Below are positions 332 to 27,455 of a DNA stretch of 35,738 nt, in pieces (the stretch's first letter is position 1; every line of letters starts with the position of its first letter). The position numbers and the translations under genes are program-made. The notes beneath the pieces were generated by a model. That model had not been told where the DNA came from and searched no databases. It saw nothing but the letters and a program-made list of their open reading frames with translations. Source of the DNA: a virus (lineage: Duplodnaviria > Heunggongvirae > Uroviricota > Caudoviricetes); the IMG/VR virus record IMGVR_UViG_2778261460_000003. One strand, given 5' to 3'.

Positions 332-592
332 TTAATTCTGAGGTAAAGGCAAGCTCATCTGATTGTTTCCCCTGTGTGAAGCTGGCAGCTCATGCCACGG
401 GATACCTTCTGAAGAGTGAACGCCGGAGGCGTGTTTCGATGTGAATTTATGGAAAGCTTCCAGTGTTGAGAAGCATACGCCGCATTCCAGGTTGTTACAC
501 TGGTAATACTTTTGCCGCACAGTGTTTGAATCATTTTCCGGACGACTGGTGCGGATGCGGGCAGATGCGCCACAAAGCGGACAACGGAACAT
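332..592 (-). CDS. ogr: Ogr/Delta-family zinc-finger late transcription activator
   Basis: N-terminus MFRCPLCG..ARIRTSR..YYQCNNLECG matches the P2 Ogr Cys4 zinc-finger pattern (MFHCPLC...ARTSR...YHQCQNVNCS). Expected position at the prophage end next to attR. Confidence 0.8.
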   Translation of the reverse strand: MFRCPLCGASARIRTSRPENDSNTVRQKYYQCNNLECGVCFSTLEAFHKFTSKHASGVHSSEGIPWHELPASHRGNNQMSLPLPQN

Positions 593-768: not shown

Positions 769-1593
769 ATGACTGACTTTAAATATCAATCTGATAGTTA
801 TGATAGACAATCACAAAAATTTGTTATTCCGCTCTACATACGAAATGAACTAGGCGATTATAATTATTCATCGACTGGAACGTTTATATATTACAAGCAA
901 TCACACTATGTGGTTTTTGCTGCTCATGCTCTGAGGGATAAAGATGACATCAGAAATATTTACATACTGGGTTCTGATGGTGAATTTTTTGCTTTGACTA
1001 GTATCTCTATAGGACATCGAATTTTTGAAGAAGATGATTTAGTCATTGTCGATTGCTTTAATATGATACTTGATGGGAAAAATTATTTCTCGCTTAAAGA
1101 TAATTTCAATTTTATTGGATTTGATAAGAAACATTTTGCATGGACAGGCTTCCCTAAAAACTGGTGCAAAACACAAACAATTCACAGAACAAAACGCCCT
1201 GGTTCAATAGTAAATCAAACGGTAGCTTCTAACGAAGATGGCCTGTTTTTTAAAAATGCCAAGTATTTCACTATAATATCCGAGGTTAAAACATTCAATA
1301 AAATTGAAATAACAGGAACATACAAGGTTAAGAATATAGATTTAAAATATAAAGGACAGGTAAGTAAAGGCCCTTCTCCAGAGGGAATGAGTGGTGGTGC
1401 AATGTATTTTTTCTCTAAGGGGCAAGAATTAAAAAAAGAACTGGAGTCAACATTTCTTTTGGCTGGAATTGGTTTGTCTTTTAAAAAAGATGGAACAATA
1501 GTGGGAATTAGCCGTTATCGTATGATTGAGCTATTTGAACAGTTTAATGAAGAATCACCTATAGAGTGTTCTCTTCATTTTCAACAAGAATAA
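769..1593 (+). CDS. Hypothetical cargo protein with chymotrypsin-fold serine-peptidase-like motifs (274 aa)
   Basis: Long ORF in a visibly AT-rich island. Motifs VVFAAHAL (His, about aa 53), DDLVIVD (Asp, about aa 95) and GMSGGAMY (Ser, about aa 208) resemble the TAAHC / DIAL / GDSGGP triad of S1 peptidases with similar spacing. No signal peptide evident. Followed by a hairpin terminator. Confidence 0.6.
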   Translation: MTDFKYQSDSYDRQSQKFVIPLYIRNELGDYNYSSTGTFIYYKQSHYVVFAAHALRDKDDIRNIYILGSDGEFFALTSISIGHRIFEEDDLVIVDCFNMILDGKNYFSLKDNFNFIGFDKKHFAWTGFPKNWCKTQTIHRTKRPGSIVNQTVASNEDGLFFKNAKYFTIISEVKTFNKIEITGTYKVKNIDLKYKGQVSKGPSPEGMSGGAMYFFSKGQELKKELESTFLLAGIGLSFKKDGTIVGISRYRMIELFEQFNEESPIECSLHFQQE

Positions 1594-1619
1594 TCCCTGT
1601 GCTCCAATTATACAAAATC

Positions 1620-1649
1620 ACAGCCTCTGTATGAGGCTGTTTCATTTTT
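1620..1649. terminator. Hairpin terminator between the convergent cargo gene and gene D (likely bidirectional)
   Basis: ACAGCCTC-tgtat-GAGGCTGT stem-loop followed by TTCATTTTT on the plus strand; the minus-strand side has GATTTTGT. Confidence 0.5.
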
Positions 1650-1809
1650 AACTATTAATTCTTCAATGTGCATAAGCACTATTTAAATGAGCCAAGAAGA
1701 ATATGCTACTAGCTAACAACTCACTATTTAGCATAGAGCCAATTGTTAGATTAAAATCTGGAGATAAGTGTGCCAGCTTGAGTCTGGGTCAATACGTCTA
1801 AATTACTCA

Positions 1810-2907
1810 CTATGTTTCTGCTATCCATTCCGGGATTTTTGCTTCAAGCTCAAGCTGTGTGGTAAAGCCGCTGTTATCAATGGTGTGCTCGGCTTTTGCA
1901 ATAATCCAGTCCTGATTATCAATCTCGCTTTTAAATCCTGTTACCGTGCCATGCATTTCGGGGTAGAGTTCTGCGCGTCCACGCGCCAGCGTGATGGAGA
2001 ATGATGCGGCTCCGCGTTGTAGCTGCTGCCACTTTGCCGCTGCTGCACGTCTTGCTGCCTGCTCGTTCTGATAAGTCTTGCGTAACACAAACACGTTGCC
2101 TTCCGCACCTTCCATATAATCGCCTTCCCGACTGCTGCTTTTCTCCTTTTTCGGTTTGCGGCGTTTCACGCTGACTTTTTTCTTTTTCCCGTAATTAAGA
2201 TCAAGCCAGTAAGCGCGTACCCCCGTATACGCTTCGCGGTCAGCAATGCGGAACTGATGGCGATCGCCACTGCTGCGCGTGATGGCGAACGATGGCAACG
2301 GCTGGCCCTGTGCGTTCACGCCACCGCCTGGCATGATGAATAACAGATTACCGCTTTTTACCGTGGTGATTGCGCCCAACATTTCCGCCATGCGCGTAAG
2401 GAAGGACATGTCGCTTTCTTCGGTCTGGTCGGCGTGGTCGATTTCGATATCCATCAGCATTTCGCTGATTTGCGGTTTCAGACCGTACCGATGAGCGATG
2501 GCGGATACCACACGCTCAACGGTCACATCATGCCAGGACACCTCACGTTTAACGTTAAATTCATCCCGAAAATCTGCGCTTCTGGCTGAAACAGTCAGCC
2601 TGTCCGGCGGTCCTTCGTGAGCGATTTCATCAACAATGTAAGTGCCTTTTTCTGTCAGCGGTTCTCCTTTCCAGCCAATGAGAACCGTCAGGCGCGCGCC
2701 CCGTGGCGGTAGCTGCAACTGACCATCCGCATCATCCAGCGTGATGGTGAGCTGGTCCGCCTCAAATCCCCGGTTGTCGGTCAGTGACAGGCTCATCAGG
2801 CGCTCTGCCACGCCTGACAGCGTTTTACCCTCCGCGAGAATATCAAAATCCGGCATTTTCACGGGGTCTGTGCCCTGACTGAGCAATTGCATGGTGGTGT
2901 CGGTCAT
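1810..2907 (-). CDS. D: Tail protein / late control gene D family (gpD)
   Basis: Translation has the gpD-like architecture. Start placed at MTDTTMQ (2907), preceded by a GGGAGGGAG RBS; the track's longer N-terminal extension is rejected. Confidence 0.8.
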   Translation of the reverse strand: MTDTTMQLLSQGTDPVKMPDFDILAEGKTLSGVAERLMSLSLTDNRGFEADQLTITLDDADGQLQLPPRGARLTVLIGWKGEPLTEKGTYIVDEIAHEGPPDRLTVSARSADFRDEFNVKREVSWHDVTVERVVSAIAHRYGLKPQISEMLMDIEIDHADQTEESDMSFLTRMAEMLGAITTVKSGNLLFIMPGGGVNAQGQPLPSFAITRSSGDRHQFRIADREAYTGVRAYWLDLNYGKKKKVSVKRRKPKKEKSSSREGDYMEGAEGNVFVLRKTYQNEQAARRAAAAKWQQLQRGAASFSITLARGRAELYPEMHGTVTGFKSEIDNQDWIIAKAEHTIDNSGFTTQLELEAKIPEWIAET

Positions 2908-2960
2908 CTGCTCCCTCCCTGTGTGGCATGGTCGCATGTGCGTGCGGAGGGGGTTACTGC

Positions 2961-3000
2961 TTTTTGTTGTCGCCGTGGCGGGAGAATGGCGCAGGGGTGA
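2961..3000 (+). promoter_or_regulatory. Putative Ogr-dependent late promoter upstream of FI
   Basis: Motif CTTTTTGTTGT-N12-AGA...GCAGGGGTGA; the same motif recurs upstream of gene P at 20782-20820. Resembles the TGT-N12-ACA activator site of P2 late promoters (remembered consensus). Confidence 0.35.
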
Positions 3001-3064
3001 GATTACGCGCGTGGTGGGTGATGATTGTTGCCGAATCATTTAACGGATACAAGGGGCTGAAGCT

Positions 3065-4249
3065 ATGAGTGAAACTCGTTTTCATGGTGCCCGTGTTACG
3101 GAAAATACCGACCTGGTAACAGCGATTAACGATGTTGATTCCAGTGTTATCGGTATCGTGGCAACGGCGGATGATGCGGACGCGAAGCTGTTCCCGCTGA
3201 ACAAGCCAACACTGCTGACCCGCGTCAATGACGTGCTGGGAAAATGCGGGACAACGGGGACGCTTTATCGTGCGCTTAAGGCCATCGCAGACCAGGTGAG
3301 CACAAAGGTGATCGTCGTTCGCGTGGCTGAACACAAAGAAGAAGACGGAAAGACGCAGGATCAACTGGTTATCGGTGGTTCTGAGGATGACGGCAGCTAT
3401 ACGGGGATGTATGCGCTGCTTGTTGCAGAGCAGGATGAAAGCATCGGATACCGTCCGCGTATTCTGGCCGCGCCGGAGCTGGACACGGAGGCTGTAACAA
3501 AATCCCTGTGCGTGATTGCAGGTAAACTGCGCGCGTTTGTGTATGCCTCATGTCACGGCTGTAACACGATGGCTGAGGCGATTACCTACCGCCAGAAATT
3601 CAACGAACGTGAGGTGATGCTCTTATGGCCGGACTTCATCGCCTACAACCCGAAAAGTGGCAAAAACGAAACGTTCCCCGCGCCTGCCTATGCGTGCGGC
3701 CTTCGTGCGTACATTGACCATGAGCAGGGATGGCACAAATCACTGTCCAACGTTCCGGTTAAAAATGTGCTGGGGATGTCGAGGCATGTGTTCTGGTCGT
3801 TGCAGGCCGAAGACAGCGATGCCAACAGCCTCAACAACAAAGAAATCACGACCATTATTCGTCGCAACGGGTTCCGCTTCTGGGGCAACCGCACACCGGA
3901 AACGAACGCCTACATCTTTGAGGTGTATACCCGAACCGCACAGGTGCTGGCTGATTCAATTGCGGAAGCGCAGTTTGAAACCATCGACAGTCCACTGACG
4001 CCTGCGAACGTGAAGGATGTTATCAGCGCCATCAGGGCAAAACTGGATTCGCTGGTTACTGCCGGGAAACTGATTGGCGCGGAGTGCTGGTATGACGTGG
4101 TGGATAACGGCACCACGGATTTACGTCAGGGGCGTGTGCGTATTCGCTACAAATATACGCCCGTTCCCCCGCTGGAAGACATGGAGCTTTACCAGACGTT
4201 TACTGATGAATTCTTTGGTCCCGCATTTGCGGTGCTGGGAGGTGCCTGA
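3065..4249 (+). CDS. FI: Contractile tail sheath protein (gpFI)
   Basis: 394 aa; followed by the tube gene with TGATG stop/start overlap; P2 FI-like size and position. Confidence 0.9.
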   Translation: MSETRFHGARVTENTDLVTAINDVDSSVIGIVATADDADAKLFPLNKPTLLTRVNDVLGKCGTTGTLYRALKAIADQVSTKVIVVRVAEHKEEDGKTQDQLVIGGSEDDGSYTGMYALLVAEQDESIGYRPRILAAPELDTEAVTKSLCVIAGKLRAFVYASCHGCNTMAEAITYRQKFNEREVMLLWPDFIAYNPKSGKNETFPAPAYACGLRAYIDHEQGWHKSLSNVPVKNVLGMSRHVFWSLQAEDSDANSLNNKEITTIIRRNGFRFWGNRTPETNAYIFEVYTRTAQVLADSIAEAQFETIDSPLTPANVKDVISAIRAKLDSLVTAGKLIGAECWYDVVDNGTTDLRQGRVRIRYKYTPVPPLEDMELYQTFTDEFFGPAFAVLGGA

Positions 4250-4761
4250 TGGCTGTACCAAAACATCTTCGCTTTTTTACGTTGTTTGTGGATGGTGAAA
4301 ACGAAGTGGGTAAAGTGACATCCGTCACGCCGCCCAAACTGACGCGCAAAACCGACAGTTATCGTGGTGGTGGCATGATGGGGGCGGTAAGTATTGATCT
4401 CGGTCTGGACGACTCCGCGCTTGATGCGAGCTTTGTCATGGGTGGAGCTGTTCGTGCACTGTTCCTTAAGTATGGCGGCACGATTGACGGCACGCTGCTG
4501 CGTTTTGCGGGTGAATATTACACCGATGCAGAAAGCGATCTGTATGAAATCGAGATGCGTGGGCGTGTGACGGAAATTGATATGGGGGAGGCCAAACAGG
4601 GCGAGGCCACATCACACACATACGCTGTCAAAAACACCTACTACAAGCTGAGTGTTAACGATCGCCCGCTGTGGGAAATCGACCTGTTGAACCACATCTA
4701 CCGGAAGGACGGCAAGGACATTGTGCCTGACCGCATTCGCTCCGCGCTTGGGCTTGGCTGA
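4249..4761 (+). CDS. FII: Tail tube protein (gpFII)
   Basis: 170 aa; start overlaps the FI stop; canonical FI-FII pair. Confidence 0.9.
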   Translation: MAVPKHLRFFTLFVDGENEVGKVTSVTPPKLTRKTDSYRGGGMMGAVSIDLGLDDSALDASFVMGGAVRALFLKYGGTIDGTLLRFAGEYYTDAESDLYEIEMRGRVTEIDMGEAKQGEATSHTYAVKNTYYKLSVNDRPLWEIDLLNHIYRKDGKDIVPDRIRSALGLG

Positions 4762-4816
4762 TAAGTAATATGCAGGCGACGCAGTGCGTCGCCTCTGACT
4801 GAAAAGGAGACAACTG

Positions 4817-5191
4817 ATGAAAGACATCGATACTGAAACCCGGAATAACACCGTAGCGGATGATGTGACGGCAGGTGAGGATATGGCTGTCGAACGTGGT
4901 GTAAAACTTTCCCGGCCAATTGAGCGTGGTGCCGAAAAAATCACATATGTGGAAATCACCGGGGCTATTGAGCAGGCGGGATCCCTGCGTGGTCTGTCGC
5001 TGTCTGATGTGCTGAATCTGAAAGCGGATACCATGTTCACGCTGTTGCCTCGCGTGACCTCGCCACGACTGGATGAAGTGATGATTAAAAAAATGTCGTC
5101 ACGCGATTTTATTCAGTTGTGCGCTGTGGCTGTAAATTTTATGAGCGAGCCAGACTCTGGCGCGAAGAGCGTGCAGGAGACGGCAGCGTAA
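4817..5191 (+). CDS. E: Tail assembly chaperone gpE (zero-frame product)
   Basis: Small ORF between tube and tape-measure genes; its 3' part overlaps a -1 frame ORF that runs into the start of T. Confidence 0.7.
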   Translation: MKDIDTETRNNTVADDVTAGEDMAVERGVKLSRPIERGAEKITYVEITGAIEQAGSLRGLSLSDVLNLKADTMFTLLPRVTSPRLDEVMIKKMSSRDFIQLCAVAVNFMSEPDSGAKSVQETAA

Positions 5192-5355
5192 TCACCCTGG
5201 TGTGCTTTGAGCACATCGAAGAGCTGGTGGCGGATATTGCCGCCATTTTTAACTGGTCGCCCGCCGAAATCTTCATGATGACGCCCGGCGAAGTGGTTAG
5301 CTGGCGTGAGCGGGCGGCACTTCGCAGCGGGAATGCAGATAATGAAGACTCTTGA
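4817..5355 (+). CDS. gpE+E' fusion via programmed -1 frameshift (putative slip at the A7 run 5087-5093)
   Basis: The -1 frame is open from 5089 to a stop at 5355 and overlaps the T start, as E' does in P2-like phages. The only homopolymer slip candidate in the permitted window is ATT AAA AAA ATG. Confidence 0.45.
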
Positions 5356-8149
5356 CATCCGGGTCGCTTTCAGCGCCGTTGACAGGCTGACCCGGCCTGC
5401 CGAAAACGCCCGCCGCCTGATGGGGCAGTTTGGTGACTCCATCCAGCGAACGCAGGGGGCGATCAAAAATCTCGAGCGTCAGGCGCGTTCATTTGAGCGC
5501 GCCCGCGACGCTGTCAGTAAAGCGGATGCGGGTATCGTGAAAGCACGACGCCAGCTTAACGCCCTTAATCAGTTACAACGCACGGGTACAGTGCTCAGCG
5601 AAAAACAACAAAAGCTGATGCAGCAGTTAAGCACCCGGCTTGAACGCCTGAATGAATCGCGCACACGGGAAATTCAGAAAATGCGGGAGCTTGGCGGAGA
5701 GCTGAAACGCCACGGCATTTCCCTGACAGGCAGCGATAACACCATCCAGCAGGCCATCAGACGCACCGAACAGTACAACAACCAGCTTGAACGCGAACGG
5801 CAGGCGCTTGCGCGTGTAACGCGGGCGCGTGAGCGGTATTCGCGCGCGCAGGAAACAGCGGGAAAACTGAAAACAGGTGGTGCGCTGGCAATTGGTGCGG
5901 CAGCGGCGGGCGGCTATGCTGCCGGGCGTTTTTTGCAGCCTGCGATCGGGTTCGGGAAAGAGATGTCCCGCGTTCAGGCACTGACGCGAATCGACAAAAA
6001 CAGCCCGCAGTTTAAGGCGCTGCGTGAGCAGGCGTTAAAACTTGGCTCTGAAACGCAGTTCACCGCAGGCGATGCCGCCAGTGGGCAGGCATTTCTTGCA
6101 ATGGCTGGCTTCACACCACAGGCCATTCAGGCTGCGCTCCCTGGCGTACTGAGCATGGCAACGGCTGGCGGTATGGACCTCGGTGAGACGGCGGATATTG
6201 GCTCAAATATTCTGACGCAGTTCGGTCTTTCTGCTGACCAGATGGACCGGGTCGGCGACACACTCACCGCAGCGTTTACCCGTACCAACACTGACCTTCG
6301 CGCACTGGGTGAAACCATGAAATATGCAGGTCCGGTGGCGGGTAAGCTGGGAATATCGCTGGAGCAGGCCGCAGCGATGGCGGGCGTGCTGGCGAATATG
6401 GGTATCAGGGGGAGTGATGCTGGTACGGCAATGCGTGCCAGCCTGGCTCGTCTGGCATCACCGCCAAAGGCGGCAGCAGAGGCGCTGAAAGAGCTTGGCG
6501 TGTCTGTCTCGGATGCCGGGGGCAAAATGCGCCCGATGGAGGATGTGCTGGCTGACCTTTATAAAGCTACCCGCAAATACGGGGAAGTTGACCGGGTATC
6601 GTTCTTTAAGGACATTGCCGGAGAAGAGGCTTTCACATCATTTATGGCCCTCGTTGATGCGGCAGGTGACGGCTCCTTACCCAAACTGAGAAAAGAACTT
6701 GAAGGCGCGCGCGGTGAGGCTGAACGCACGGCAAAGGTTATGGCCAACAACCTTGACGGCGATCTGAAATCACTCAGCAGTGCATGGGAAGGGTTGCGCA
6801 TCCGCATTGCAGATCTGATTGACGGTCCGCTGCGTTCTGTCACGCAGTGGCTCACGCGTGTGGTATCAAAGGTGACGGCGCTGGCGCAGGCCCATCCCGC
6901 ACTGACGCGCCAGCTACTGATTGCAGGCGGTGCACTGCTGGCAATGACTGCAACGGTTGGCTCGTTGTCGCTGGCTATTGGTGTGCTTGCTGGTCCGCTG
7001 GCAAAACTGCGTCTTGTTTTTTCCCTCCTGACCGGATCAATGAATGCTGTCAGGGTTCTGCCAGCACTATGGGGAATGGTGACGGGTTCCGTTTCGTTAC
7101 TGGGGGGCGCTATCGGGGCGTTGTTCAGTCCGGTCGGTCTTATCGTGGCTGCGCTTGCCGGAGCTGCCGTTCTCATCTGGAAATACTGGGATCCCATCAG
7201 GGCATTTTTTGCCGGGGTGTTCAGCGGGATTATGGAAAGGCTGACCCCGTTGCGCGAAACCTTTGAACGGTTTGGTCCTGTTTTTGACGCAATCGGAAGC
7301 GGGATCAGCCAGGTGTTTAACTGGTTTAAATCGCTGTTGTCACCGATGGAGTCCAGCAAGGAAACGCTGGATAAATGTACCAGTGCTGGCGAGGTATTCG
7401 GTAACGTTCTTGGCGGTGCGTTACAACTTGTTCTGACACCTGCAAAAATGCTACTGGATACGCTGGCGTGGATACTTGAAAAACTTGGCGTCCTTCCGGA
7501 TGAAGCGGAAAGGGCGCGCAAGAAAATCGAAGACGCACAGCGTGCGGCCATTCTTCAGGACAAGGTTGCCTTACTTCAGGGGGACCTGGCGAAAATCAAT
7601 CCGCCGAAGCCTGTGGAAAATGGCAATGGCACCGGAGGTGATAAACCCAAAGACAACAAACCGCTCACAGACAGCAATACCGGGACGCTACGCAGACTCA
7701 GCAAAATTGCTGATAACACAGGTAAGCTGGTTGATGAGACGAAAAAACGCATTGGCCCCGGCGATATTGTCTTTAAGAACTTGCCCCGCGCACTTGCTGT
7801 TCGTGGGGAGTGGCAGGAGCGGAAGATTGCACAGGTCAGAAAGCCTGCCCCCGCAATTAATATCACCCCCGTGGTCCCGGCTCCGCTGCCTCCGGCGCTG
7901 GTCCCTGTTGTTGCGGCCAGCTCCCACCCGGTGGCGGAGGCCATACGATCTCCAGTGGCATCAGTTCCTGTAACTTCCCGTAACCGGGAGCCTGTTGCCT
8001 CCGGATTTGGTGGTGAAATTCATGTTCATCTGCATAACGTTGTTACGCAGAATCCCCGCGAACTGGCGAAACTGGTCGGTGAAATGGTCAGGGCAGAAAT
8101 GGAACGGCGCGCCCGTGCCGGGCGTGGCAGTTTTTACGATAAAGATTGA
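5306..8149 (+). CDS. T: Tail tape measure protein (gpT)
   Basis: 947-aa ORF with a coiled-coil-like N-terminal region (runs of R/Q/E/L), a central Gly/Ala-rich hydrophobic segment and a Pro/Ala-rich C-terminus; located after E/E'. Start could be 5306, 5333 or 5342. Confidence 0.85.
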   Translation: MSGRHFAAGMQIMKTLDIRVAFSAVDRLTRPAENARRLMGQFGDSIQRTQGAIKNLERQARSFERARDAVSKADAGIVKARRQLNALNQLQRTGTVLSEKQQKLMQQLSTRLERLNESRTREIQKMRELGGELKRHGISLTGSDNTIQQAIRRTEQYNNQLERERQALARVTRARERYSRAQETAGKLKTGGALAIGAAAAGGYAAGRFLQPAIGFGKEMSRVQALTRIDKNSPQFKALREQALKLGSETQFTAGDAASGQAFLAMAGFTPQAIQAALPGVLSMATAGGMDLGETADIGSNILTQFGLSADQMDRVGDTLTAAFTRTNTDLRALGETMKYAGPVAGKLGISLEQAAAMAGVLANMGIRGSDAGTAMRASLARLASPPKAAAEALKELGVSVSDAGGKMRPMEDVLADLYKATRKYGEVDRVSFFKDIAGEEAFTSFMALVDAAGDGSLPKLRKELEGARGEAERTAKVMANNLDGDLKSLSSAWEGLRIRIADLIDGPLRSVTQWLTRVVSKVTALAQAHPALTRQLLIAGGALLAMTATVGSLSLAIGVLAGPLAKLRLVFSLLTGSMNAVRVLPALWGMVTGSVSLLGGAIGALFSPVGLIVAALAGAAVLIWKYWDPIRAFFAGVFSGIMERLTPLRETFERFGPVFDAIGSGISQVFNWFKSLLSPMESSKETLDKCTSAGEVFGNVLGGALQLVLTPAKMLLDTLAWILEKLGVLPDEAERARKKIEDAQRAAILQDKVALLQGDLAKINPPKPVENGNGTGGDKPKDNKPLTDSNTGTLRRLSKIADNTGKLVDETKKRIGPGDIVFKNLPRALAVRGEWQERKIAQVRKPAPAINITPVVPAPLPPALVPVVAASSHPVAEAIRSPVASVPVTSRNREPVASGFGGEIHVHLHNVVTQNPRELAKLVGEMVRAEMERRARAGRGSFYDKD

Positions 8150-8155
8150 GGAGTC

Positions 8156-8650
8156 ATGGCCATGATGATGATCTACGGCATGTTTGTTTTTGAGCTGCGC
8201 ACATTGCCGCATCAGCAGTTACAGCAAAACAAAAGCTGGCGGCATGTGAAAAATGAACGCGTTAACCGTTCAGCAAGCTGGCAGTATATCGGCGCAGGTG
8301 ATGATCGCATCGTGCTTTCCGGCGTGCTTTATCCTGAAATTACAGGTGGCGAAGTGTCGCTTTCGTTGCTGACCACGCAGGCATATACAGGACGCCCCTG
8401 GCCTCTGATTGATGGTGTCGGGCAGATTTACGGCATGTATGTCCTGACCGGAACGAATACGACCCGCTCCGAGTTTGATCGCTACGGTAAGGCGAAAAAG
8501 ATAGAATTTTCACTGACTCTTGAACGCTGTGATGAGGATTTGCGGGAGCGCCTGCAATCCTCATCGTTCAGTGATATGCTGTCCGGCTTCAAAGATAAGG
8601 TCACATCATCCCTTAACAGCGCGGCCAGCTCCGTTAAAGGGCTGTTTTGA
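8156..8650 (+). CDS. U: Tail protein gpU
   Basis: 164-aa ORF immediately after T; size and position match P2 U. Confidence 0.8.
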   Translation: MAMMMIYGMFVFELRTLPHQQLQQNKSWRHVKNERVNRSASWQYIGAGDDRIVLSGVLYPEITGGEVSLSLLTTQAYTGRPWPLIDGVGQIYGMYVLTGTNTTRSEFDRYGKAKKIEFSLTLERCDEDLRERLQSSSFSDMLSGFKDKVTSSLNSAASSVKGLF

Positions 8651-8657
8651 TTAACGC

Positions 8658-8687
8658 AAAACCGCTAATGGTCAGATTAGCGGTTTT
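8658..8687. terminator. Bidirectional rho-independent terminator between convergent U and the invertase
   Basis: Perfect 12-bp stem AAAACCGCTAAT / ATTAGCGGTTTT with a 6-nt loop; T-runs on both strands; the stem includes the invertase stop codon. Confidence 0.55.
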
Positions 8688-9276
8688 CATTTTCCTGAGT
8701 CTGCCTGGTTGTTTCTTCAGCCTGTATATCGCCTACAGGGTGATAACGATAAATCGTCGATATGCCGATGTCGTAAATGATCGCCAGTTGTTTCCTGTCA
8801 TGACCGTTTTTAATCAGCCTCGCTATTTGCTCGTGTTGTTCTTTTGTCAACTTCGGGCGACGTCCGCCAATGCGTCCTTGTGCGCGTGCTGCTGCCAGCC
8901 CGGCCAGTGTACGCTCTACAATTAATTCACGTTCCATTTCGGCTAAAGCTCCCATGACGTGAAAAAAGAAACGCCCCATGGGTGTTGATGTGTCAATGCT
9001 GTCCGTCAGACTACGGAAATTAACACCTTTTTCCCGCAATTCCTCAATAAGCGTGATCAGGTGTTTCATACTTCTGCCCAGTCTGTCCAGCTTCCAGACA
9101 ACCAGCGTATCTCCTTCTGATAGCGTTCTGAGCAGTTTTTTCAATCCCGGTCTGGCTGATTTCGTTCCGCTGATTTTATCTTCAAAAATCAGTTCACATC
9201 CTGCGCACTCCAGCGCGTTACGCTGCAATTCTGTATTCTGGTCATTTGTTGATACGCGGACATAGCCAATAAGCAT
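8677..9276 (-). CDS. Serine recombinase, DNA invertase of the Pin/Gin/Cin/Hin family
   Basis: MLIGYVRVSTNDQ N-terminus with catalytic Ser in VSTNDQ, then WKLDRLGRSMKHL and a C-terminal HTH; closely matches my recollection of e14 Pin. Adjacent to the invertible fibre segment. Confidence 0.9.
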   Translation of the reverse strand: MLIGYVRVSTNDQNTELQRNALECAGCELIFEDKISGTKSARPGLKKLLRTLSEGDTLVVWKLDRLGRSMKHLITLIEELREKGVNFRSLTDSIDTSTPMGRFFFHVMGALAEMERELIVERTLAGLAAARAQGRIGGRRPKLTKEQHEQIARLIKNGHDRKQLAIIYDIGISTIYRYHPVGDIQAEETTRQTQENENR

Positions 9277-9303
9277 GATGGATCCCCTGAATAAAAACCG
9301 GGG

Positions 9304-9813
9304 ATGATGCCAGTTAGCCGTAATCTCTGCATTTTCTTAAACGTTGGTTTGGGAGAAACGATAGATAAAGCCTCCGGAGCTATGCAGAAATCGGCTAATG
9401 GATATGATATTTCTGATGTATCAGCCTTCCGAAATGCGCTCCAGTTAGGGACCGCTGCAACACGAGATGTTGGAGCAGATAATGCCTCGAAGTTACTGGA
9501 TTTAGACAGCTTCAGGTCAATGATGTCAGGTAATGGCTACATCTACATTCCATGCATTGCGACGACAGGAAACCCGGTGAAACTTATGTTGCAGTGGGGA
9601 ACGGTGGCAACACAAAAGGGAGTTGATGCTGGATATGCCTTACCATTTGCTTTTCCCTATGCAGGTTTGTTTGCGACCGGAAACCGTGGAACATCTGGCT
9701 ACAATGCCGCGATGAATGTGCGTATTGCCAGCAGAACGCATATCAGTATTCAGAACTGGTCGCCATCCGGAGAGGGCACCGAAGATTGTTGTTTTATCGC
9801 GTTGGGGTATTAA
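9304..9813 (+). CDS. Alternative tail-fibre C-terminal segment (Sv'-like); expressed only after fusion to the H N-terminus upon inversion
   Basis: Frame encodes ...FLNVGLGE|TIDK..., sharing GLGE with H exactly at the crossover site; followed by its own tail-fibre assembly gene. Confidence 0.65.
   Translation: MMPVSRNLCIFLNVGLGETIDKASGAMQKSANGYDISDVSAFRNALQLGTAATRDVGADNASKLLDLDSFRSMMSGNGYIYIPCIATTGNPVKLMLQWGTVATQKGVDAGYALPFAFPYAGLFATGNRGTSGYNAAMNVRIASRTHISIQNWSPSGEGTEDCCFIALGY
9332..9357. repeat. gix/hix-like inversion crossover site (right site)
   Basis: TTTTCTTAAACG-TT-GGTTTGGGAGAA; right half and core are a perfect inverted copy of 11241-11254; resembles the remembered gix consensus. Confidence 0.5.
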
Positions 9814-9815
9814 GA

Positions 9816-10232
9816 ATGAATAAATTTTATAAAGGCTCTTTCTATCCGGAAGCACTAAAAGATGTATATATCAGCGCCGGTTCATGGCCTGAAAATGGCG
9901 CTGATGTTGATGATGAAACAATGGCAATTTACACAGGCGTAGCGCCAGAAGGCAAAACGCTGGGGGCTGATAAAAATGGTAATCCTGCGTGGATTGATAT
10001 CCCGCCACTCTCCGCTGAACAACAGATTATTCAGGCTGAACAGAAAAGAACGGTATTGCGTTCTATGGCTGATAAGGAAATAGTCTGGAGACAGGATGCT
10101 TTTGATGCGGAAATCGCGACGGCAGAAGAAACCGCCGCGTTATCTGAATGGAAAAAATACCGGGTCTTGCTGATGCGCGTTGATACATCAAATCCCGTCT
10201 GGCCTACGCCTCCGGGGGAGCAGGCCAATTGA
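9816..10232 (+). CDS. Tail fibre assembly protein (alternative, U'-like)
   Basis: Ends ...NPVWPTPPGEQAN (WPxxP tail-fibre-assembly motif); convergent with and overlapping the 3' end of the G-like gene. Start chosen at MNKFYKG. Confidence 0.7.
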   Translation: MNKFYKGSFYPEALKDVYISAGSWPENGADVDDETMAIYTGVAPEGKTLGADKNGNPAWIDIPPLSAEQQIIQAEQKRTVLRSMADKEIVWRQDAFDAEIATAEETAALSEWKKYRVLLMRVDTSNPVWPTPPGEQAN

Positions 10233-10797
10233 TATCCGGCGCGGTGCTGGTATCTGTTGCCGTCACCGCGTCAATGTAATCCAGCACAGCGTTAAGCCGG
10301 GTTGTTTCTGCCTGCGTCAGTTTCCGCCCGGCCTGTAATTTCAGCTGAGTCAGACTAATGGAAGCCATTGCAGCATCAATCAGCAACTGGCGCTGTGCTT
10401 CTGCCGCGTCTACTGCGGCGCTATGCTGTGCCTCGGTATCCGTCACCCATTTCTCACCATCCCATTTATCGTATGGCGTTAACGGTGAAAGCGTGACATA
10501 ACCGTCTTTGATGGCACCGATATAATCCACTGTAACAGCTGCGCCATTTTCGATTGAGTAAACAGTCTCATTGCGATGGTCCTCTTCATGGCTCCATCCC
10601 TTACCCGTGAATACTGCCACTTGCCCCGGAATGTTTTCGCCCGGGTCAATACCAGTGGAACAGGCGGGCATACTTACGCCAGTATTAATATATTCATCAG
10701 ACCAGCCCGTATATTCAGACGTTACTGCATCATAATAAAAACAACGCATATCACCCGGCACTGTAGCCAGTCCATTTTCATCAAAAACAGGTTTCAT
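10204..10797 (-). CDS. G: Tail fibre assembly protein (gpG-like)
   Basis: 197 aa ending ...DINWPAPPEA; directly downstream of H. Confidence 0.8.
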   Translation of the reverse strand: MKPVFDENGLATVPGDMRCFYYDAVTSEYTGWSDEYINTGVSMPACSTGIDPGENIPGQVAVFTGKGWSHEEDHRNETVYSIENGAAVTVDYIGAIKDGYVTLSPLTPYDKWDGEKWVTDTEAQHSAAVDAAEAQRQLLIDAAMASISLTQLKLQAGRKLTQAETTRLNAVLDYIDAVTATDTSTAPDINWPAPPEA

Positions 10798-12386
10798 TAT
10801 TTAGCCCTCACCAGAAAGTTAAATGCAATATTTCGCGGTCTGACAGCAACAAAATTAACACCATCTCCTACTGAGTTACTGGTGTACTGAAATCGAGAGA
10901 AACCTGGCTGGTGTGCTGATATTCCATCGTAATCAGCAATCGCATGGCCGGACCCTTCTGGATAATTACCACCAAATTGCGATAAAGATGTTGCTGCCTG
11001 CCAGCTTAATAATGCTCGCCCACTGTCCGCCCCTCGCCCATCATCCCAGATACGAATGAAGTCACCGCGGGCTTCAGGTAATACCAGCGAAGGAAACACT
11101 TTTGCCAGCACAGGGTAATCAGTGGCAGAGAATTTCGCGCCGTTGAACTTCAAAAACACCATGCCGGACCAGCTTTCGATTACGGTATCTGGCATTGCGG
11201 CGGACGGCCAGAAGAACGGAACGCCAATAGCTGGAGCACCTTCTCCCAAACCAAGGTAATCAAGAACTCCCTGAGTGCTGGTTTTACCAAGAATGGCACG
11301 TCCAACACTTGTCAACGCGGTTAACGCGGCACGATCTGCTCCTGTAAAATATGGGAGTTTATCTGCTGATGTAGCAAGCTCCGCCAGCGCCGTCAGGGTG
11401 GCATCCTTCGGTTGCTTACCCGCAAGCGCGTTAGTCATGGTGGTCGCAAAATTCGGGTCATTGCCCAGCGCCGCAGCCAGTTCGTTCAGCGTGTTCAGTG
11501 CATCAGGTGACGAATCTACAAGTGCGGCAATCGCGGCCATAACGAAAGCCGTGCTTGCGATCTGGGTACTATTAGTCCCCTGTGGCGCTGTTGGTGTTGT
11601 TGGCGTTCCGGTCAGTGCCGGGCTGTTTAATGGTGCTTTCTTGCTCGTTTCATCCATTACCGCCTTAACAGCTTTTGGTGTCGCTGCCAGCGTTTCAGAC
11701 GTGCTGTTCGTGGCGCTACTGAGCTGAACAATCCCTTTTTGTGTTGTGGTGGCGTTCTGGGCGGTATATTTCCCGTCAGCCAGGTCATATGCAGCCTTAA
11801 CTGCTTTCGGTGTTGCGGCCAGTGTTTCTGATTCACTGTTAATTGCACTGCTTAACTGAGTAAAACCTTTTGCGGTCAGCGAGGCGTCCGGGTGACGTCG
11901 TGACTGTTCGTGCTCTGAGATTTTATCATCCACATATTTGCGGGTTGCCAGAATCACAGACGGGTCGATTTTCAGCGTGATGGCTTCGGTGTTCGTGACA
12001 ACCAGAATCATGCGGATAGTCTGGGTGCGTCCACTGCCTTCCTGCAACTGCGGTTTGTACGTTTCCGGGCAGTTTGCCACCGCAATGAGTACACCTTCAT
12101 CATCATAAAGACCAATCTCACGGATCCAGAATCCTCCCTCGTTTTCAGGGATGATTTGCTCCGCAATAATCTGGCTCTGATTGTTAGGGTCAACACTCAG
12201 AAGATTCAGCGGTGCAATGCGTTTCTGGTTAATCAGTTTTGTTTGTGCAGGGTCTGGTGTTGGTAACACACCATTTGCATCACCAACGGCCATTTGCGTC
12301 AGATTCAGCTTACTGCCGAGCATCGTCGCGTTAGCCAGTCGTGCTGCGCCCTGATTAGTCAGAATGGCGTAGTATTTCACTGTCAT
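10797..12386 (-). CDS. H: Tail fibre protein (gpH-like), constant N-terminus plus currently fused variable C-terminus
   Basis: 529 aa with repeated TQLSSA..SETLAATPKAVKA motifs typical of fibres; contains the left crossover site inside the coding sequence. Confidence 0.85.
   Translation of the reverse strand: MTVKYYAILTNQGAARLANATMLGSKLNLTQMAVGDANGVLPTPDPAQTKLINQKRIAPLNLLSVDPNNQSQIIAEQIIPENEGGFWIREIGLYDDEGVLIAVANCPETYKPQLQEGSGRTQTIRMILVVTNTEAITLKIDPSVILATRKYVDDKISEHEQSRRHPDASLTAKGFTQLSSAINSESETLAATPKAVKAAYDLADGKYTAQNATTTQKGIVQLSSATNSTSETLAATPKAVKAVMDETSKKAPLNSPALTGTPTTPTAPQGTNSTQIASTAFVMAAIAALVDSSPDALNTLNELAAALGNDPNFATTMTNALAGKQPKDATLTALAELATSADKLPYFTGADRAALTALTSVGRAILGKTSTQGVLDYLGLGEGAPAIGVPFFWPSAAMPDTVIESWSGMVFLKFNGAKFSATDYPVLAKVFPSLVLPEARGDFIRIWDDGRGADSGRALLSWQAATSLSQFGGNYPEGSGHAIADYDGISAHQPGFSRFQYTSNSVGDGVNFVAVRPRNIAFNFLVRAK
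11241..11266. repeat. gix/hix-like inversion crossover site (left site, inside H)
   Basis: TTCTCCCAAACC-AA-GGTAATCAAGAA; 14-bp perfect inverted repeat with 9344-9357. Confidence 0.5.
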
Positions 12387-12991
12387 GCGTTTACTCTCAG
12401 ATTATCAATTAAATGAATGGCCGGGGCAGGGAAATAATCCCCTTCGACAATAATGGACTCCGGGGTGTAGGGATAAACCGTCAGGGCATCGCCGTGATAG
12501 CATCCCGTACCAACGAAAATCTTTCCGTTCACACTCAGGCTGATCGCCAGCCCCGTCAGATGGCGACTTACTGGTTTTGCATCCGCAACAAGGCGCTCAA
12601 GTTCCTGATACATTTCATCGGTGATGCCCTGATCAAGTACTCCGACAACAATGCGAAATGTTCCTGGCTCCTCGTTGAGTTGCCACCACTCCTTTACTTC
12701 AATCAGGTAGCCGAGAGGCTCCACGGCTCTTCGCAGTGCGCTGATGGTCCCTTTGTGTCGGTGTATCAGCCATGCATCACGAATTACCTGTCGCTTTGTC
12801 TCTTCCGGCCAGTTGCGATCCCAGCGGTCAACGGAAAACGCCCAGGCGAGATAAGGCAGCAGATGCACCGGGCAGGTATCCGGCGACCACAGCGTATTGA
12901 GGTCTACCGGAATGTCTGTAATGCGTGTTCCGACGGCTTCGGCACAACGCATGAAACTGCTGGCTGATGGCGGTAACAGTGAATTACTCAT
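12383..12991 (-). CDS. I: Baseplate assembly protein gpI
   Basis: Position between H and J; internal start at MSNSLL chosen to limit overlap with J (track ORF extends to 13024). Confidence 0.7.
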   Translation of the reverse strand: MSNSLLPPSASSFMRCAEAVGTRITDIPVDLNTLWSPDTCPVHLLPYLAWAFSVDRWDRNWPEETKRQVIRDAWLIHRHKGTISALRRAVEPLGYLIEVKEWWQLNEEPGTFRIVVGVLDQGITDEMYQELERLVADAKPVSRHLTGLAISLSVNGKIFVGTGCYHGDALTVYPYTPESIIVEGDYFPAPAIHLIDNLRVNA

Positions 12992-13883: not shown

Positions 13884-14234
13884 TTACTCTCTCAGCGTGA
13901 TGGTTAATTCAACATTCTGCATGGTCTGCATGACAGTGCCCGACAGCGTCACCCCGGCGCGGCCTCCTGCCTTCCAGACAACGTCGATGGCGTCCAGGGC
14001 AATGCGGGGTTCCCATCGTGTCAGCGCAATCACGGCAGCACTCATGCATTGCAGACGCGTGGTGTTATTCATGGGTTCGTCAATCAAATCAGGCACAAGG
14101 CTGCCATATTCCCGTCGCATAACTCGGCTTGCCAGCGGGGTGGTCAGGATGTCCCTGACTGACTGTTTCAGGTGCTCCGTATCGTTCAGGTTTTCCGTCC
14201 CGTCCGGATTCATTCCTGTGTAGCGGGTTGTCAC
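13884..14234 (-). CDS. W: Baseplate wedge protein gpW
   Basis: 116 aa; P2 W-like size and position. Confidence 0.8.
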   Translation of the reverse strand: MTTRYTGMNPDGTENLNDTEHLKQSVRDILTTPLASRVMRREYGSLVPDLIDEPMNNTTRLQCMSAAVIALTRWEPRIALDAIDVVWKAGGRAGVTLSGTVMQTMQNVELTITLRE

Positions 14235-14812
14235 TGCGGGCCTCCTGTCGAATCGCTGCCGCCTTTCACGCCACCGTGTTTATGCGTATGCACGGTAATG
14301 CCGTTTGAGGTGAAGTTGCCGCCGCTGTGCGTGATATTGCCGCTCATCTTTCCTCCTTTTGTGACGTCAAGCGTCGCTGTTCTCAGAAGGTTTGTGCATT
14401 CCACGACGGGCGTATCCAGTTTCACGCTGACGGATGTCTGCAAAGTGGCCGTTTTCATGCCGCTGGCGTTCAGTGCGCCTGCGTCCGCGTCGTAGCGGAA
14501 CACCGCGCCGTCCGGCGCGCTGACCACGATTTCTTTCAGGCTTTTGCCGGGTGCCGGATTGGCATCACTCCACAGGCTGCCAATTATCATGGCGGTTTCC
14601 GGGTTGCCGCCGATGCAGGCAATTACCACCTGTTCGCCTGGTGATGGCGGCAGCCATACATTGAAGGCTCCCGCGCGCGTGGTGTTCCAGCGCAGCCAGC
14701 CTGTTTCCAGTTCGCCGCTGCGAACGCGTACGCACCAGGATTCCTCATCAACTTCAGAGATGATCCCGGTGCGGATGATGTTGCTCAGCAGTCGCATGAG
14801 TTCTGCGCTCAC
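14231..14812 (-). CDS. V: Baseplate spike / assembly protein gpV
   Basis: 193 aa; P2 V-like size and position, Gly-rich C-terminal tip. Confidence 0.8.
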   Translation of the reverse strand: MSAELMRLLSNIIRTGIISEVDEESWCVRVRSGELETGWLRWNTTRAGAFNVWLPPSPGEQVVIACIGGNPETAMIIGSLWSDANPAPGKSLKEIVVSAPDGAVFRYDADAGALNASGMKTATLQTSVSVKLDTPVVECTNLLRTATLDVTKGGKMSGNITHSGGNFTSNGITVHTHKHGGVKGGSDSTGGPQ

Positions 14813-15453
14813 CGTACAGCCTCCGCAATCCGGCCCAGCACCGTGTTATAAATCAGGCGTTCATCTGCCTGACTGATGCCCAACAGCTCACGTACCGGGT
14901 AATCGGTGAAAATGCCCGGCGCAACCTGATCGCGCTCACCGAACTGATGAACGCGTGCAATACGTGCGGCCACGCCGCTGTAACCCACCGTCACACCGGA
15001 AGCATCTGCACGGGCTTTCAGGTAGCGGGCGGTGCGCAGTTTTACGAACATGGGGACGCGCTTTGTGCTGTCCTGGTTGATGCGCCGGGTGCGTATTTCC
15101 AGAAAACGGTCGATGTCATCCCGGTAAAACGTGCGGATATTGTTTTTATCCTCATCCCACCCGGTAATGGTTCGCCCGTATTTCCCCGTGTCGTGATGCC
15201 AGTTTTTCAGCGTGCGTGCTTCGTTATTCCAGATAAAGCGAATGCGCTCCTGTATCCGGGTTACGCGGCGTCTGCGTGGTGTCCATGCGGTCCCGTCCGG
15301 CGCTTTCTGTGACCGGATACGTGCCTGCTGGGCGCGGCGTAAATCCTGTGCCAGCTTTCTGGCGATGTTATTGATGGCCTGCTGATTCAGGCTGTCGCGG
15401 ATGGCCTCAAAGGTTTCATCCACGCGGGTGAATGCCTTATCCATCGCTTTCAC
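14809..15453 (-). CDS. S: Tail completion / virion morphogenesis protein (gpS-like)
   Basis: Position between R and V. Longer than P2 S (214 vs about 150 aa), so the true start may be internal. Confidence 0.55.
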   Translation of the reverse strand: MKAMDKAFTRVDETFEAIRDSLNQQAINNIARKLAQDLRRAQQARIRSQKAPDGTAWTPRRRRVTRIQERIRFIWNNEARTLKNWHHDTGKYGRTITGWDEDKNNIRTFYRDDIDRFLEIRTRRINQDSTKRVPMFVKLRTARYLKARADASGVTVGYSGVAARIARVHQFGERDQVAPGIFTDYPVRELLGISQADERLIYNTVLGRIAEAVR

Positions 15454-20781: not shown

Positions 20782-20820
20782 TTTTGTTGTAAGAAAACGG
20801 CCAGAGCAGGGGGTTAAGGA
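20782..20820 (+). promoter_or_regulatory. Putative late promoter upstream of P (in the divergent O/P control region)
   Basis: CTTTTGTTGT-N12-AGA-GCAGGGGGT, the same motif as upstream of FI. Confidence 0.35.
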
Positions 20821-26376: not shown

Positions 26377-27455
26377 TTAATCCCCCACTTTTGTAATTTA
26401 TTCGCGATTGTTGGATGTGAAACACCAACTAATTCAGCTATCTTCCTATTTGAAAAACCGTCAAAATGATATTTAATTATATTGAGATCATTATCGCTAA
26501 ACTCATCCAATGAAACCCTCTCCGTAATTACGGCTTCTATTAATGAGCTTTCAAATGGAATATTTCTAAGTACCTCATTCTTTTTGGAGAAATTCAAAAT
26601 ACGGTTAATGATGGCAAAGGACATGCCATCTAATAATGGTGCAAGTTTTTTAGATAGTTCAGGTTCAATATTATGATTGACTAAATATCTATCTATCAGT
26701 TCTACTGATGGCATATTAAATTTAAGGATGTGCTCAAATCGACGCCAAACAGCCGGATCTAAGATATCAGGGTGATTAGTCGCAGCAACAAGAAGCGAGG
26801 TCGCTGGCCACTCATCTATGGTCTGTAGGAGTACAGTAACTAAACGTTTTAATTCTCCAACGTCCCTGTCATCATCACGTCTTTTTGCAACAGCATCAAA
26901 TTCATCAAGCAAAAGGACACATGGTTTCTCTTTGGCATAATCCATAACGGATTTAATATTATTACCTGTTTTTCCCAAAAGAGAACTCATTACAGATGAG
27001 AGATCCAATGTTAAAAGAGGTAAATTTAACTTTGCAGCAAGCCAATGTGCGGACATTGTTTTGCCTACGCCTGGCGGGCCAGAAAGTAAAACCGTCTTCA
27101 CAGGTTCAAGACCAGCTTTGAACAAAGAAACCGCATTCTCTCTTTCGTTAACAATTGACTCCAGCTTCTTTGAGATATCCGTATTCCATACAGGTTCTTC
27201 AACAATTGCGTTGACAGATGTTTCCTGCAAAAGGTTTCGTCTGGAGTCTCCATCCACAGGCATAGGAGCCTTACTAGATGCCCCACGTAATACTGTTCCC
27301 TCAGCAACTAACGAAGCCAGCTTAGAAGCTAAAGCCTCATCATTTTTACGGATGTTGTTAATCATCTTTCTGCATAGGAGTGTAAATGCATTTGCGTTGC
27401 CTTTGATGCCTTGCTCGATGAGTTTGAAAAGTTCATCCTCCCTCACGTTTACCAT
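26373..27455 (-). CDS. AAA+ ATPase with C-terminal HTH-like region, 360 aa
   Basis: Walker A GPPGVGKT, Walker B VLLLDEFD; C-terminal NRKIAELVGVSHPTIANKLQKWG resembles an HTH; AT-rich. Confidence 0.8.
   Translation of the reverse strand: MVNVREDELFKLIEQGIKGNANAFTLLCRKMINNIRKNDEALASKLASLVAEGTVLRGASSKAPMPVDGDSRRNLLQETSVNAIVEEPVWNTDISKKLESIVNERENAVSLFKAGLEPVKTVLLSGPPGVGKTMSAHWLAAKLNLPLLTLDLSSVMSSLLGKTGNNIKSVMDYAKEKPCVLLLDEFDAVAKRRDDDRDVGELKRLVTVLLQTIDEWPATSLLVAATNHPDILDPAVWRRFEHILKFNMPSVELIDRYLVNHNIEPELSKKLAPLLDGMSFAIINRILNFSKKNEVLRNIPFESSLIEAVITERVSLDEFSDNDLNIIKYHFDGFSNRKIAELVGVSHPTIANKLQKWGIK

Follow-up and report, generated by a model that had tools for sequence, protein, structure and literature searches.

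Inverted sheath-to-U tail genes are the ordinary arrangement in a large P2-like phage lineage, with a predicted bidirectional late promoter between D and FI

In the window (the whole 35,738-nucleotide stretch of viral DNA analyzed here), gene D and the baseplate genes are on one strand and the tail genes FI to U on the other. This orientation is the fixed, normal and ordinary gene order of a large P2-like branch whose extent and age go well beyond one phage. The gap between D and FI carries a dyad at a conserved position and a mirror-image pair of conserved hexamers, from which we infer that the gap is a bidirectional Ogr-dependent late promoter, PD/PF. As an explanation of the whole, we consider it likely that the window is a Xuanwuvirus prophage in which one ancestral inversion of the segment from PF to U has been inherited vertically, leaving a PD/PF site shared by the two transcription units.

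Tail gene layout of the window

Homologues of all the genes of the Peduoviridae (P2-like) tail module, FI, FII, E/E', T, U, D and ogr, are present in the window. Every tail-module gene has a Pfam match, and tblastn searches with P2 proteins gave E-values from 1e-11 to 1e-111. The features are as follows.

332-592, minus strand: ogr homologue, an Ogr/Delta zinc-finger late activator (PF04606, E=5e-14; 41.5% identity to P2 Ogr residues 1-51)
1810-2907, minus strand: D, baseplate hub / late control D (PF05954; 50% identity to P2 gpD from residue 15; 100% to P88 gp51)
3065-4249, plus strand: FI, tail sheath (PF04984, PF22671, PF17482; 45% identity to P2 FI; 99% to P88)
4249-4761, plus strand: FII, tail tube (PF04985, E=2e-45)
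4817-5355, plus strand: E and E', tail assembly chaperone pair (E 4817-5191; E' frame 5119-5355, PF06528)
about 5306-8149, plus strand: T, tape measure (PF10145; P2 T alignment from 5351)
8156-8650, plus strand: U, tail protein (PF06995, E=1.5e-38)
8658-8687, either strand: bidirectional hairpin terminator common to the F operon and the invertase gene (12-bp stem AAAACCGCTAAT-ggtcag-ATTAGCGGTTTT)
8677-9276, minus strand: Hin/Gin-type serine DNA invertase (PF00239, PF02796)

Pfam and tblastn with P2 proteins agree that FI-FII-E-T-U (3065-8650) are opposite in strand to D and to G, H, I, J, W and V, which share the minus strand with D, as an earlier note on this DNA had claimed. D and FI diverge from a gap at 2908-3064, whose length is exactly the 157 bp given in that note. 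At the other end of the block, U and the invertase gene converge on the hairpin at 8658-8687, bearing out the bidirectional terminator proposed before; the hairpin lies between the stop codons of the two genes, has A and T runs on both sides and scores as terminator-like. The start of D is the ATG at 2907, which has its own Shine-Dalgarno sequence (GGGAGGGAG) just before it. A longer D reading frame, extending to 3039, is not supported because the alignment with P2 D begins at residue 15, at position 2853. The start of T is uncertain (5306 or about 5342). The P2 E alignment spans 4883-5158 by tblastn, and the P88 annotation has two coding sequences at the place of E/E'.

The P2 F operon (PF-FI-FII-E/E'-T-U-D-ogr) has the same genes in the same internal order as the window, although the protein identities are only 33-50%, and the ogr homologue is downstream of D and co-directional with it in both. 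In the P2 record, FI-FII-E-T-U-D form one operon from PF, as the earlier note had stated, whereas in the window FI-U occupy the plus strand and D the minus strand. In P2, D overlaps U and comes last in the PF transcript; in the window it diverges from FI, with its own Shine-Dalgarno sequence and a putative promoter of its own. A separate transcription start for D, already deduced in the note, is needed here as D and FI-U lie on opposite strands. Apart from the FI-U block, the window genome is syntenic with P2.

Over positions 300-25000, the window is collinear with and 94.6-96.5% identical to P88, P884B11, PhiSM, 500465-2 and others over 76-86% of the length (95.6% over 81% with P88, 96.5% over 80% with P884B11). 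The ICTV guideline for a genus is about 70% identity over the full length, and on these alignments of 300-25000 we assign the window to the P88-like (Xuanwuvirus) P2-family prophages. The Xuanwuvirus members P88, P884B11, Citrobacter phage PhiSM/Shae_phiSM, 500465-2 and 520873 have the identical layout, with D on the minus strand, FI to U on the plus strand and the invertase on the minus strand, together with the 157-bp gap and the dyad. They differ from the window in the fibre tips, in the invertase (about 86% identical in amino acids) and in cargo: the window has a 274-residue open reading frame between D and ogr, and IetAS by cos. The E protein of P88 is 73% identical to that of the window.

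The inverted order among related phages and prophages

Of 5426 complete E. coli genomes, 1355 (about a quarter) carry the D/FI junction in collinear form. We also compared loci picked by FI similarity (the best 80 of 587 matches, which is not an unbiased census). Among these best 80, all 40 genome loci whose FI is 55% or more identical have ogr and D on the minus strand, FI to U on the plus strand and I, J, W and V on the minus strand, and these 40 prophages come from many Enterobacterales species; by comparison, the collinear order is seen in 39 of 39 P2-type loci with D included, a set that takes in outgroups from beta-proteobacteria, Acinetobacter and Pseudomonas. All 46 related loci show one orientation only.

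The inverted strand layout is also found in the annotations of the isolated phages P88, which is inducible and lytic (PMC5285337), and PhiSM, which is spontaneously active (PMC6456863), as well as in SEN5, KSP20 and the Klebsiella phages Kp4848-1 and Kp4878-3. Senquatrovirus (SEN4/SEN5), Reipivirus, Reginaelenavirus and Serratia phage KSP20 share the layout and the dyad position with the window, although their FI is only 55-72% identical; most have a perfect TGT-N12-ACA dyad, and several have no invertase beside U. Related phages carry this orientation as their normal state, the outcome that the earlier note had said would make it simply the gene order of the lineage, so the block is not an anomaly of this sequence.

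The D/FI gap as a predicted bidirectional promoter

Ogr/Delta-dependent late promoters are characterized by a TGT-N12-ACA dyad whose centre lies about 55 nt before the start of transcription, and they are active only with Ogr and the alpha subunit of RNA polymerase. The activator itself is encoded in the window by the ogr homologue. The following elements were located in the D/FI gap.

2968-2985, either strand: Ogr-type dyad TGT-N12-AGA (centre 2976.5; extended motif TTTTGTTGT-N12-AGA from 2962)
3020-3025, plus strand: -10-like hexamer GATGAT of the predicted PF (+44 to +49 from the dyad centre; predicted start near 3032)
2928-2933, minus strand: -10-like hexamer GACCAT of the predicted PD (-44 to -49 from the dyad centre; predicted start near 2921)

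An exact search of the window for TGT-N12-ACA returned nothing in the gap, because the window carries the AGA variant, one mismatch from the consensus; the site emerged on aligning relatives. About 0.65 dyad matches per 157 bp are expected by chance at up to one mismatch, so the case for the dyad rests on its conserved position and not on the match itself. The dyad lies 78-88 nt from the FI ATG in all 46 inverted-order loci. In 43 of them it is TGT-N12-ACA or TGT-N12-AGA (80-88 nt from the FI ATG), and in the other three, all from Providencia, it is TCT-N12-AGA at an unchanged position, meaning that both half-sites have changed. Measured from its centre, the dyad of the window is 88 nt away from the ATG of FI and 69 nt away from that of D. 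The Ogr-type dyad upstream of P2 FI is placed alike (82 nt at PF; about 82-88 nt for the two phages). A class of about 9 loci with the D ATG some 107 nt from the dyad centre proved spurious, the true MALTTD starts being about 68 nt away.

The sequences flanking the dyad are conserved as well. Non-coding blocks of the gap are kept across genera, and at least 80% of 44 distinct sequences retain xAxxAT on the PF side and xAxcAT, its mirror image, on the PD side. The 12-base motif TTTTGTTGT-N12-AGA occurs identically in the window only at the D/FI gap and in the O/P divergent region (20782-20805), the same two sites from which the motif was derived. Published work describes the consensus of P2 late promoters and, in Smp131, a PP'/PO' site that is shared (PMC3931495). 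In P2, PP and PO drive divergent late genes around a single dyad, as at D/FI in the window, with mapped starts 55.5 nt to either side; their hexamers, TAGCCT (PP) and GAAACT (PO), sit at the same offsets of 44-49 nt as in the window and share the pattern xAxxxT. P2 has no PD/PF pair, and that of the window is predicted from sequence.

By analogy with PP and PO, the single dyad would drive two divergent late promoters. PF would transcribe FI-FII-E/E'-T-U, ending at the hairpin downstream of U, and PD would transcribe D through a short predicted leader of about 14 nt. Ogr dependence and both start positions are predictions from this geometry. A separate PV site was also looked for upstream of V, and none was found.

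An unlikely alternative is that the inversion is real and ancient and D is nevertheless not Ogr-dependent; its promoter would then be a separate one, active at a different time, and the left-hand conserved block would have another purpose. The D-to-Ogr link is indeed a prediction here, the -10-like hexamer GACCAT is weak, and a different factor could bind the conserved CGCGCGCG-rich block. However, the hexamers keep their mirror symmetry about the dyad from genus to genus, and the geometry is identical to that of the mapped PP/PO pair. Furthermore, no sigma-70 consensus promoter was found in the D/FI gap, its minus strand included, and D is required stoichiometrically with the other tail proteins. 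We prefer the bidirectional PD/PF promoter, and hold with moderate confidence that one ancient inversion turned the unidirectional PF of P2 into a second bidirectional Ogr-dependent promoter, uncoupling gpD from the sheath-tube-tape-measure transcript, with the mirror-symmetric site kept throughout the history of the clade.

Origin and meaning of the inversion

The proposed event would have taken place in the ancestor of a large branch of Peduoviridae infecting Enterobacterales, where the stretch running from PF through U may have flipped once; one breakpoint would have been between PF and the fibre/invertase genes, the other between D and U. Through the inversion, D would have come to lie back to back with the Ogr site of PF, which has dyad symmetry, and the arrangement would have been inherited vertically ever since as the normal order in functional phages. 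Neighbor-joining trees of FI, FII, U and D each separate the inverted from the collinear loci, in keeping with a single ancient inversion. The baseplate genes J, I, W and V gave trees without this split, and monophyly is thus seen only for the module of FI-U plus D.

The behavior of the baseplate trees, together with the mosaic nature of P2-like genomes, would also suit a replacement in which an FI-U cassette was imported in the opposite orientation from another contractile-tail phage instead of being flipped in place. We regard this as improbable. Divergence from P2 is similar inside the block (FI 45%, FII 42%, U 46% identity) and outside it (D 50%, V 46%, W 44%), and the D tree splits as the FI, FII and U trees do. 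The PF dyad is at the P2 distance from FI, and the block has precisely the genes of P2 in the P2 order.

Far less probable is a programmed switch in which the adjoining Hin/Gin-type invertase flips FI-U, giving both orientations in one population. Its gene abuts the block, and enzymes of the serine invertase kind do invert kilobase-sized segments. However, gix-like or 26-bp crossover sites were not found at 2850-3100 or 8600-8720, where the best local matches are 7-8 nt, in line with the absence of gix-like sites reported earlier. An inverted-repeat search of 1500-12800, the boundary check that the earlier note had advised, gave chance-level pairs only; nothing joins the two ends of the block (2900-3070 and 8640-8690). 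The invertase's own paired sites, 9332-9357 and 11241-11266, flank the fibre segment; a gix search at up to 3 mismatches gave one site only, and its partner at 11241-11266, in H, was found by gapped local alignment. Judged from these sites, the invertase serves the fibre segment and not the FI-U block, which has no crossover pair at its ends and a single orientation in relatives, unlike a Gin/Hin/Cin segment. In addition, 1357 of 1382 matching E. coli records keep the D/FI junction intact, many clade members (e.g. SEN5) have the inverted block and no adjacent invertase, and the flipped-back orientation would leave FI-U without an adjoining promoter.

Of the two origins offered in the earlier note, a lineage-specific inversion stands and an assembly artefact does not: that the 5.7-kb block was flipped when the contig was assembled has next to no likelihood, as nothing but the departure from the P2 map favors it, and it is already refuted by identical junctions in the 1355 complete E. 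coli genomes, with the same junctions in independently sequenced, viable phages and in 40 prophages of other species, each junction having purpose-built signals (a conserved divergent promoter region, as predicted here, and a shared terminator).

The inverted layout is already visible in deposited genome maps. We found neither the clade-defining inversion nor the PD/PF promoter described in words in the searchable literature, and the inversion is unmentioned in papers on P88, SEN4/5, the C. rodentium prophage, P2 diversity and defence hotspots. Our findings leave the current understanding of P2-type regulation unchanged. In P88-like prophages, however, D is a separate unit and the P2 operon map does not apply; such prophages are very frequent in E. 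coli, Salmonella, Klebsiella, Serratia, Xenorhabdus and others. The divergent D/FI junction is a simple and robust marker that divides the sampled Peduoviridae tail modules into two lineages. If the predicted PD/PF is true, this clade, today found in roughly one in four complete E. coli genomes, would be a natural example of an operon that tolerates inversion as its dyad-symmetric activator site becomes bidirectional.

Gene map and ends of the tail block

An ORF list, Pfam searches and tblastn with all P2 proteins identify the window as a complete P2-family prophage in reverse orientation relative to the P2 map, with the following genes.

Gene map of the window (coordinates, strand, feature, method)
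332-592, minus, ogr homologue (tblastn with P2 proteins, Pfam)
769-1593, plus, low-GC cargo ORF (ORF list)
1810-2907, minus, D (Pfam, tblastn with P2 proteins)
3065-4249, plus, FI (Pfam, tblastn)
4249-4761, plus, FII (Pfam, tblastn)
4817-5355, plus, E/E' (Pfam, tblastn)
about 5306-8149, plus, T (Pfam, tblastn)
8156-8650, plus, U (Pfam, tblastn)
8677-9276, minus, Hin/Gin-type invertase (Pfam)
after the invertase in gene order, invertible fibre segment
then, all minus and in this order, H, I, J, W, V, S, R, lysis genes, X, L, M, N, O
beyond O in gene order, plus, P and Q
last in gene order, cos-side cargo, then the early region with A, C and int

The same searches confirm the earlier note's reading that the FI-U block and D lie on opposite strands, and the P2 record agrees with the co-directional operon it had described: FI-FII-E-E'-T-U-D is a single operon from the late promoter PF, in which D overlaps U. 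All late genes other than FI-U are oriented as P2 predicts, and the succession of D and then ogr on one strand is retained. A single inversion, of the stretch running from PF through U, accounts for this difference from P2 in its entirety.

The divergent D/FI region spans 2908-3064 and has the size of 157 bp previously given. D starts with the ATG at 2907, preceded by the SD sequence GGGAGGGAG, and the tblastn alignment of P2 gpD begins at gpD residue 15 (window position 2853). A longer D ORF to 3039, which would span the whole gap, lacks support from homology. At the other end, a hairpin at 8658-8687 with a 12-bp stem (AAAACCGCTAAT-ggtcag-ATTAGCGGTTTT) lies between and across the ends of U (8650) and the invertase gene (8677) and is terminator-like in both directions, consistent with the bidirectional terminator on which the two genes were said to converge.

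The 274-aa cargo ORF at 769-1593 (plus, GC about 0.35) parts D from ogr on the opposite strand, whereas the two genes are adjacent in P2. It has no match in Pfam or PADLOC, a bidirectional terminator-like hairpin (1620-1640) lies just beyond it, and it looks like a moron. The low-GC cassette at 24172-27455 (minus, GC about 0.40-0.43) is an IetAS anti-phage/anti-plasmid defence pair, encoding the subtilase IetS (734 aa, PADLOC E=7e-41) and the AAA ATPase IetA (360 aa, PADLOC E=4e-89); it occupies the cos-proximal hotspot that holds old and tin in P2. The early region of this integrating prophage includes a gene for a ParM/StbA actin-like segregation protein (28150-29109, minus; PF06406 E=2e-82, PF21523 E=6e-69). 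S (14809-15453, minus) overlaps V (14231-14812, minus), and neither an orf30-type spacer nor an Ogr-type dyad was found upstream of V, so transcription of the baseplate and fibre genes may simply run on from the O operon, without a separate PV.

Distribution and origin of the inverted order

Megablast of 1500-10500 found D through the invertase in single collinear pieces, at 92-96.5% identity, in eight phages (P88, P884B11, Shae_phiSM, 500465-2, 520873, 503458, PhiR44_2 and Chuche). Across the late region (300-25000), relatives align with 76-86% coverage and 94.6-96.5% identity, which makes the window a Xuanwuvirus member. The strand pattern in the P88 and PhiSM annotations matches the window; P88 is induced and plaque-forming (PMC5285337), and PhiSM shows spontaneous activity in Citrobacter rodentium (PMC6456863). 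The D/FI junction (query 2400-3600, at least 80% coverage) is present in 1355 of 5426 complete E. coli genomes; the U/invertase junction occurs in 619 genomes, and U without this invertase in many more. The inverted order is thus the normal state of the related phages, the outcome for which the earlier note would have taken it as no more than the gene order of the lineage, and the block is ordinary for this lineage. We note IS100 insertions within the tail block of phages 520873 and 503458. O157:H7 E. coli strains have a copy (e.g. NC_011353.1 2517304-2518264) whose match to the junction query does not begin until base 241, which means that distal D sequence has been lost or replaced.

Sheath identities by tblastn in the phage collection fall into three bands: at least 95% (Xuanwuvirus), 55-72%, and at most 49% (P2 and classical P2-like phages). 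Four middle-band phages have the inverted layout, namely SEN5 (Senquatrovirus), Serratia KSP20, Kp4848-1 (Reipivirus) and Kp4878-3 (Reginaelenavirus). Bacterial genomes were also scanned, with one genome per species with a sheath alignment and gene strands scored in the best 80 of 587 matches; these loci, picked by sheath similarity, are a sample and not a census. Where FI is at least 55% identical to that of the window, the order is ogr- D- / FI+ FII+ T+ U+ / (invertase-) I- J- W- V- in 40 of 40 loci. Hosts of inverted loci include Salmonella, Citrobacter, Enterobacter, Kosakonia, Klebsiella, Raoultella, Trabulsiella, Mixta, Erwinia tracheiphila, Brenneria, Serratia, Pantoea, Pectobacterium, Yokenella, Providencia, Morganella, Xenorhabdus and Dryocola. 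The next sheath band has the P2-like collinear order in all 39 loci that include D (one additional locus is truncated before D). Prophages of Burkholderiales, Acinetobacter and Pseudomonas fall within this band, so outgroup comparison makes collinearity ancestral. On a 226-kb contig with a Gram-positive label (L009, NZ_JBQPOM010000071.1, 'Vagococcus sp. WN89Y') there is also a Xuanwuvirus-type prophage, whose sheath shares 98% identity with that of the window; this assembly is probably contaminated or mislabelled.

In neighbour-joining analysis, a branch separating inverted from collinear loci is present in the tree of each of FI, FII, U and D. For J, I, W and V the branch is absent, which fits the known mosaicism of baseplate and fibre modules. 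A foreign FI-U cassette might have been imported rather than inverted in place, but tblastn identity to P2 is alike within the block, at 42-46% (FI 45%, FII 42%, U 46%), and beside it, at 44-50% (D 50%, V 46%, W 44%), which argues against import and for inversion in place. An active switch of the block is rejected, as searches at both boundaries found no inverted repeat joining the block ends and, in agreement with the earlier note, no gix/hix-like sequence at either end. The assembly artefact, which that note had offered beside a lineage-specific inversion, is ruled out by recurrence of the junction in relatives, isolated phages and the 1355 E. coli genomes, and the lineage-specific inversion stands.

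The actual invertase sites, which are hix/gix-like and lie at 9332-9357 (plus) and 11241-11266 (minus) with the common sequence TTGGTTTGGGAGAA, bracket alternative fibre tips and chaperones, and P2 H similarity ends exactly at 11241. The segment between them is about 1.9 kb long; its plus strand encodes an alternative H C-terminus and the matching chaperone, and its minus strand the current H tip and G. The 9332 site has a degenerate left half that aligns only if a 2-nt gap is allowed, and the segment may therefore be locked or invert poorly.

A candidate bidirectional late promoter between D and FI

Upstream of D on the minus strand there is only the 5.7-kb antisense strand of FI-U, past a terminator, so that D needs a promoter in the 157-bp gap, as expected from the earlier statement that it must be transcribed separately. 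No sigma-70 consensus promoter was found in this gap. An alignment of seven phages shows a conserved TTGTTGT...ACAAC element there, which matches the consensus P2 late-promoter dyad TGT-N12-ACA (PMC3931495, citing Christie & Calendar 1985 and Julien & Calendar 1995). In the window the element reads TGT-N12-AGA and spans 2968-2985 (centre 2976.5). A TGT-N12-ACA/AGA dyad is present in 43 of 46 inverted loci, centred 80-88 nt from the FI ATG, compared with 82 nt in P2 PF, and about 64-80 nt from the D ATG (D starts corrected). In three Providencia loci (L032-L034), a perfect GTTCTC-N-GAGAAC dyad (TCT-N12-AGA) takes the place of TGT/ACA at the same gap position. Alteration of both half-sites is as expected for a protein-binding dyad, and their joint change suggests co-evolution with the Ogr protein, the late activator, of these prophages. 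The dyad of the window is a hybrid, TGT...AGA. An Ogr homologue is encoded in the window at 332-592.

When 44 distinct sequences were stacked on the dyad centre, the hexamer xAxxAT at +44 to +49 was kept in at least 80% of them (window GATGAT, 3020-3025), as was xAxcAT at -44 to -49 on the opposite strand (window GACCAT, 2928-2933). This conserved geometry is that of the P2 PP/PO pair, for which the P2 record annotates a single activator site (3057-3087, P2 coordinates). There the dyad is centred on 3071.5, midway between the mapped starts (3016 and 3127) and 55.5 nt from each, and TAGCCT and GAAACT occupy the same offsets of 44-49 nt to either side. The 12-base motif TTTTGTTGT-N12-AGA occurs exactly twice in the window, at D/FI and in the O/P divergent region (20782-20805). 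The window holds 17 TGT-N12-A[CG]A sites, and D/FI is the only one flanked by -10-like hexamers in both symmetric positions; at O/P, one hexamer is exactly placed and the other is off by 1 nt. We note that 20714, and not the first ORF ATG (20748), is the probable start of the scaffold gene O: this start has the SD GAGGGG and lies 82 nt from the O/P dyad centre, and P2 gpO aligns from 20703.

We propose that the D/FI gap is a bidirectional Ogr-dependent promoter, with the PF start near 3032 and that of a D promoter, PD, near 2921; Ogr binding, both starts and late timing are predicted from the sequence. Since the activator site of PF is a dyad, the inversion that set it beside D could have given D late transcription once a weak -10 element was also present.

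The inverted layout is already known as data, being visible in GenBank records back to KSP20 and P88; a description in words was not found in the P88, SEN4/5, C. rodentium prophage, P2-diversity and defence-hotspot papers searched. Bidirectional Ogr-type sites common to PP and PO are established (PMC3931495; P2 record), and the PD/PF pair would be a straightforward variation on that common site. The remaining interest lies in the putative bidirectional late promoter and in the D/FI junction as a clade marker.
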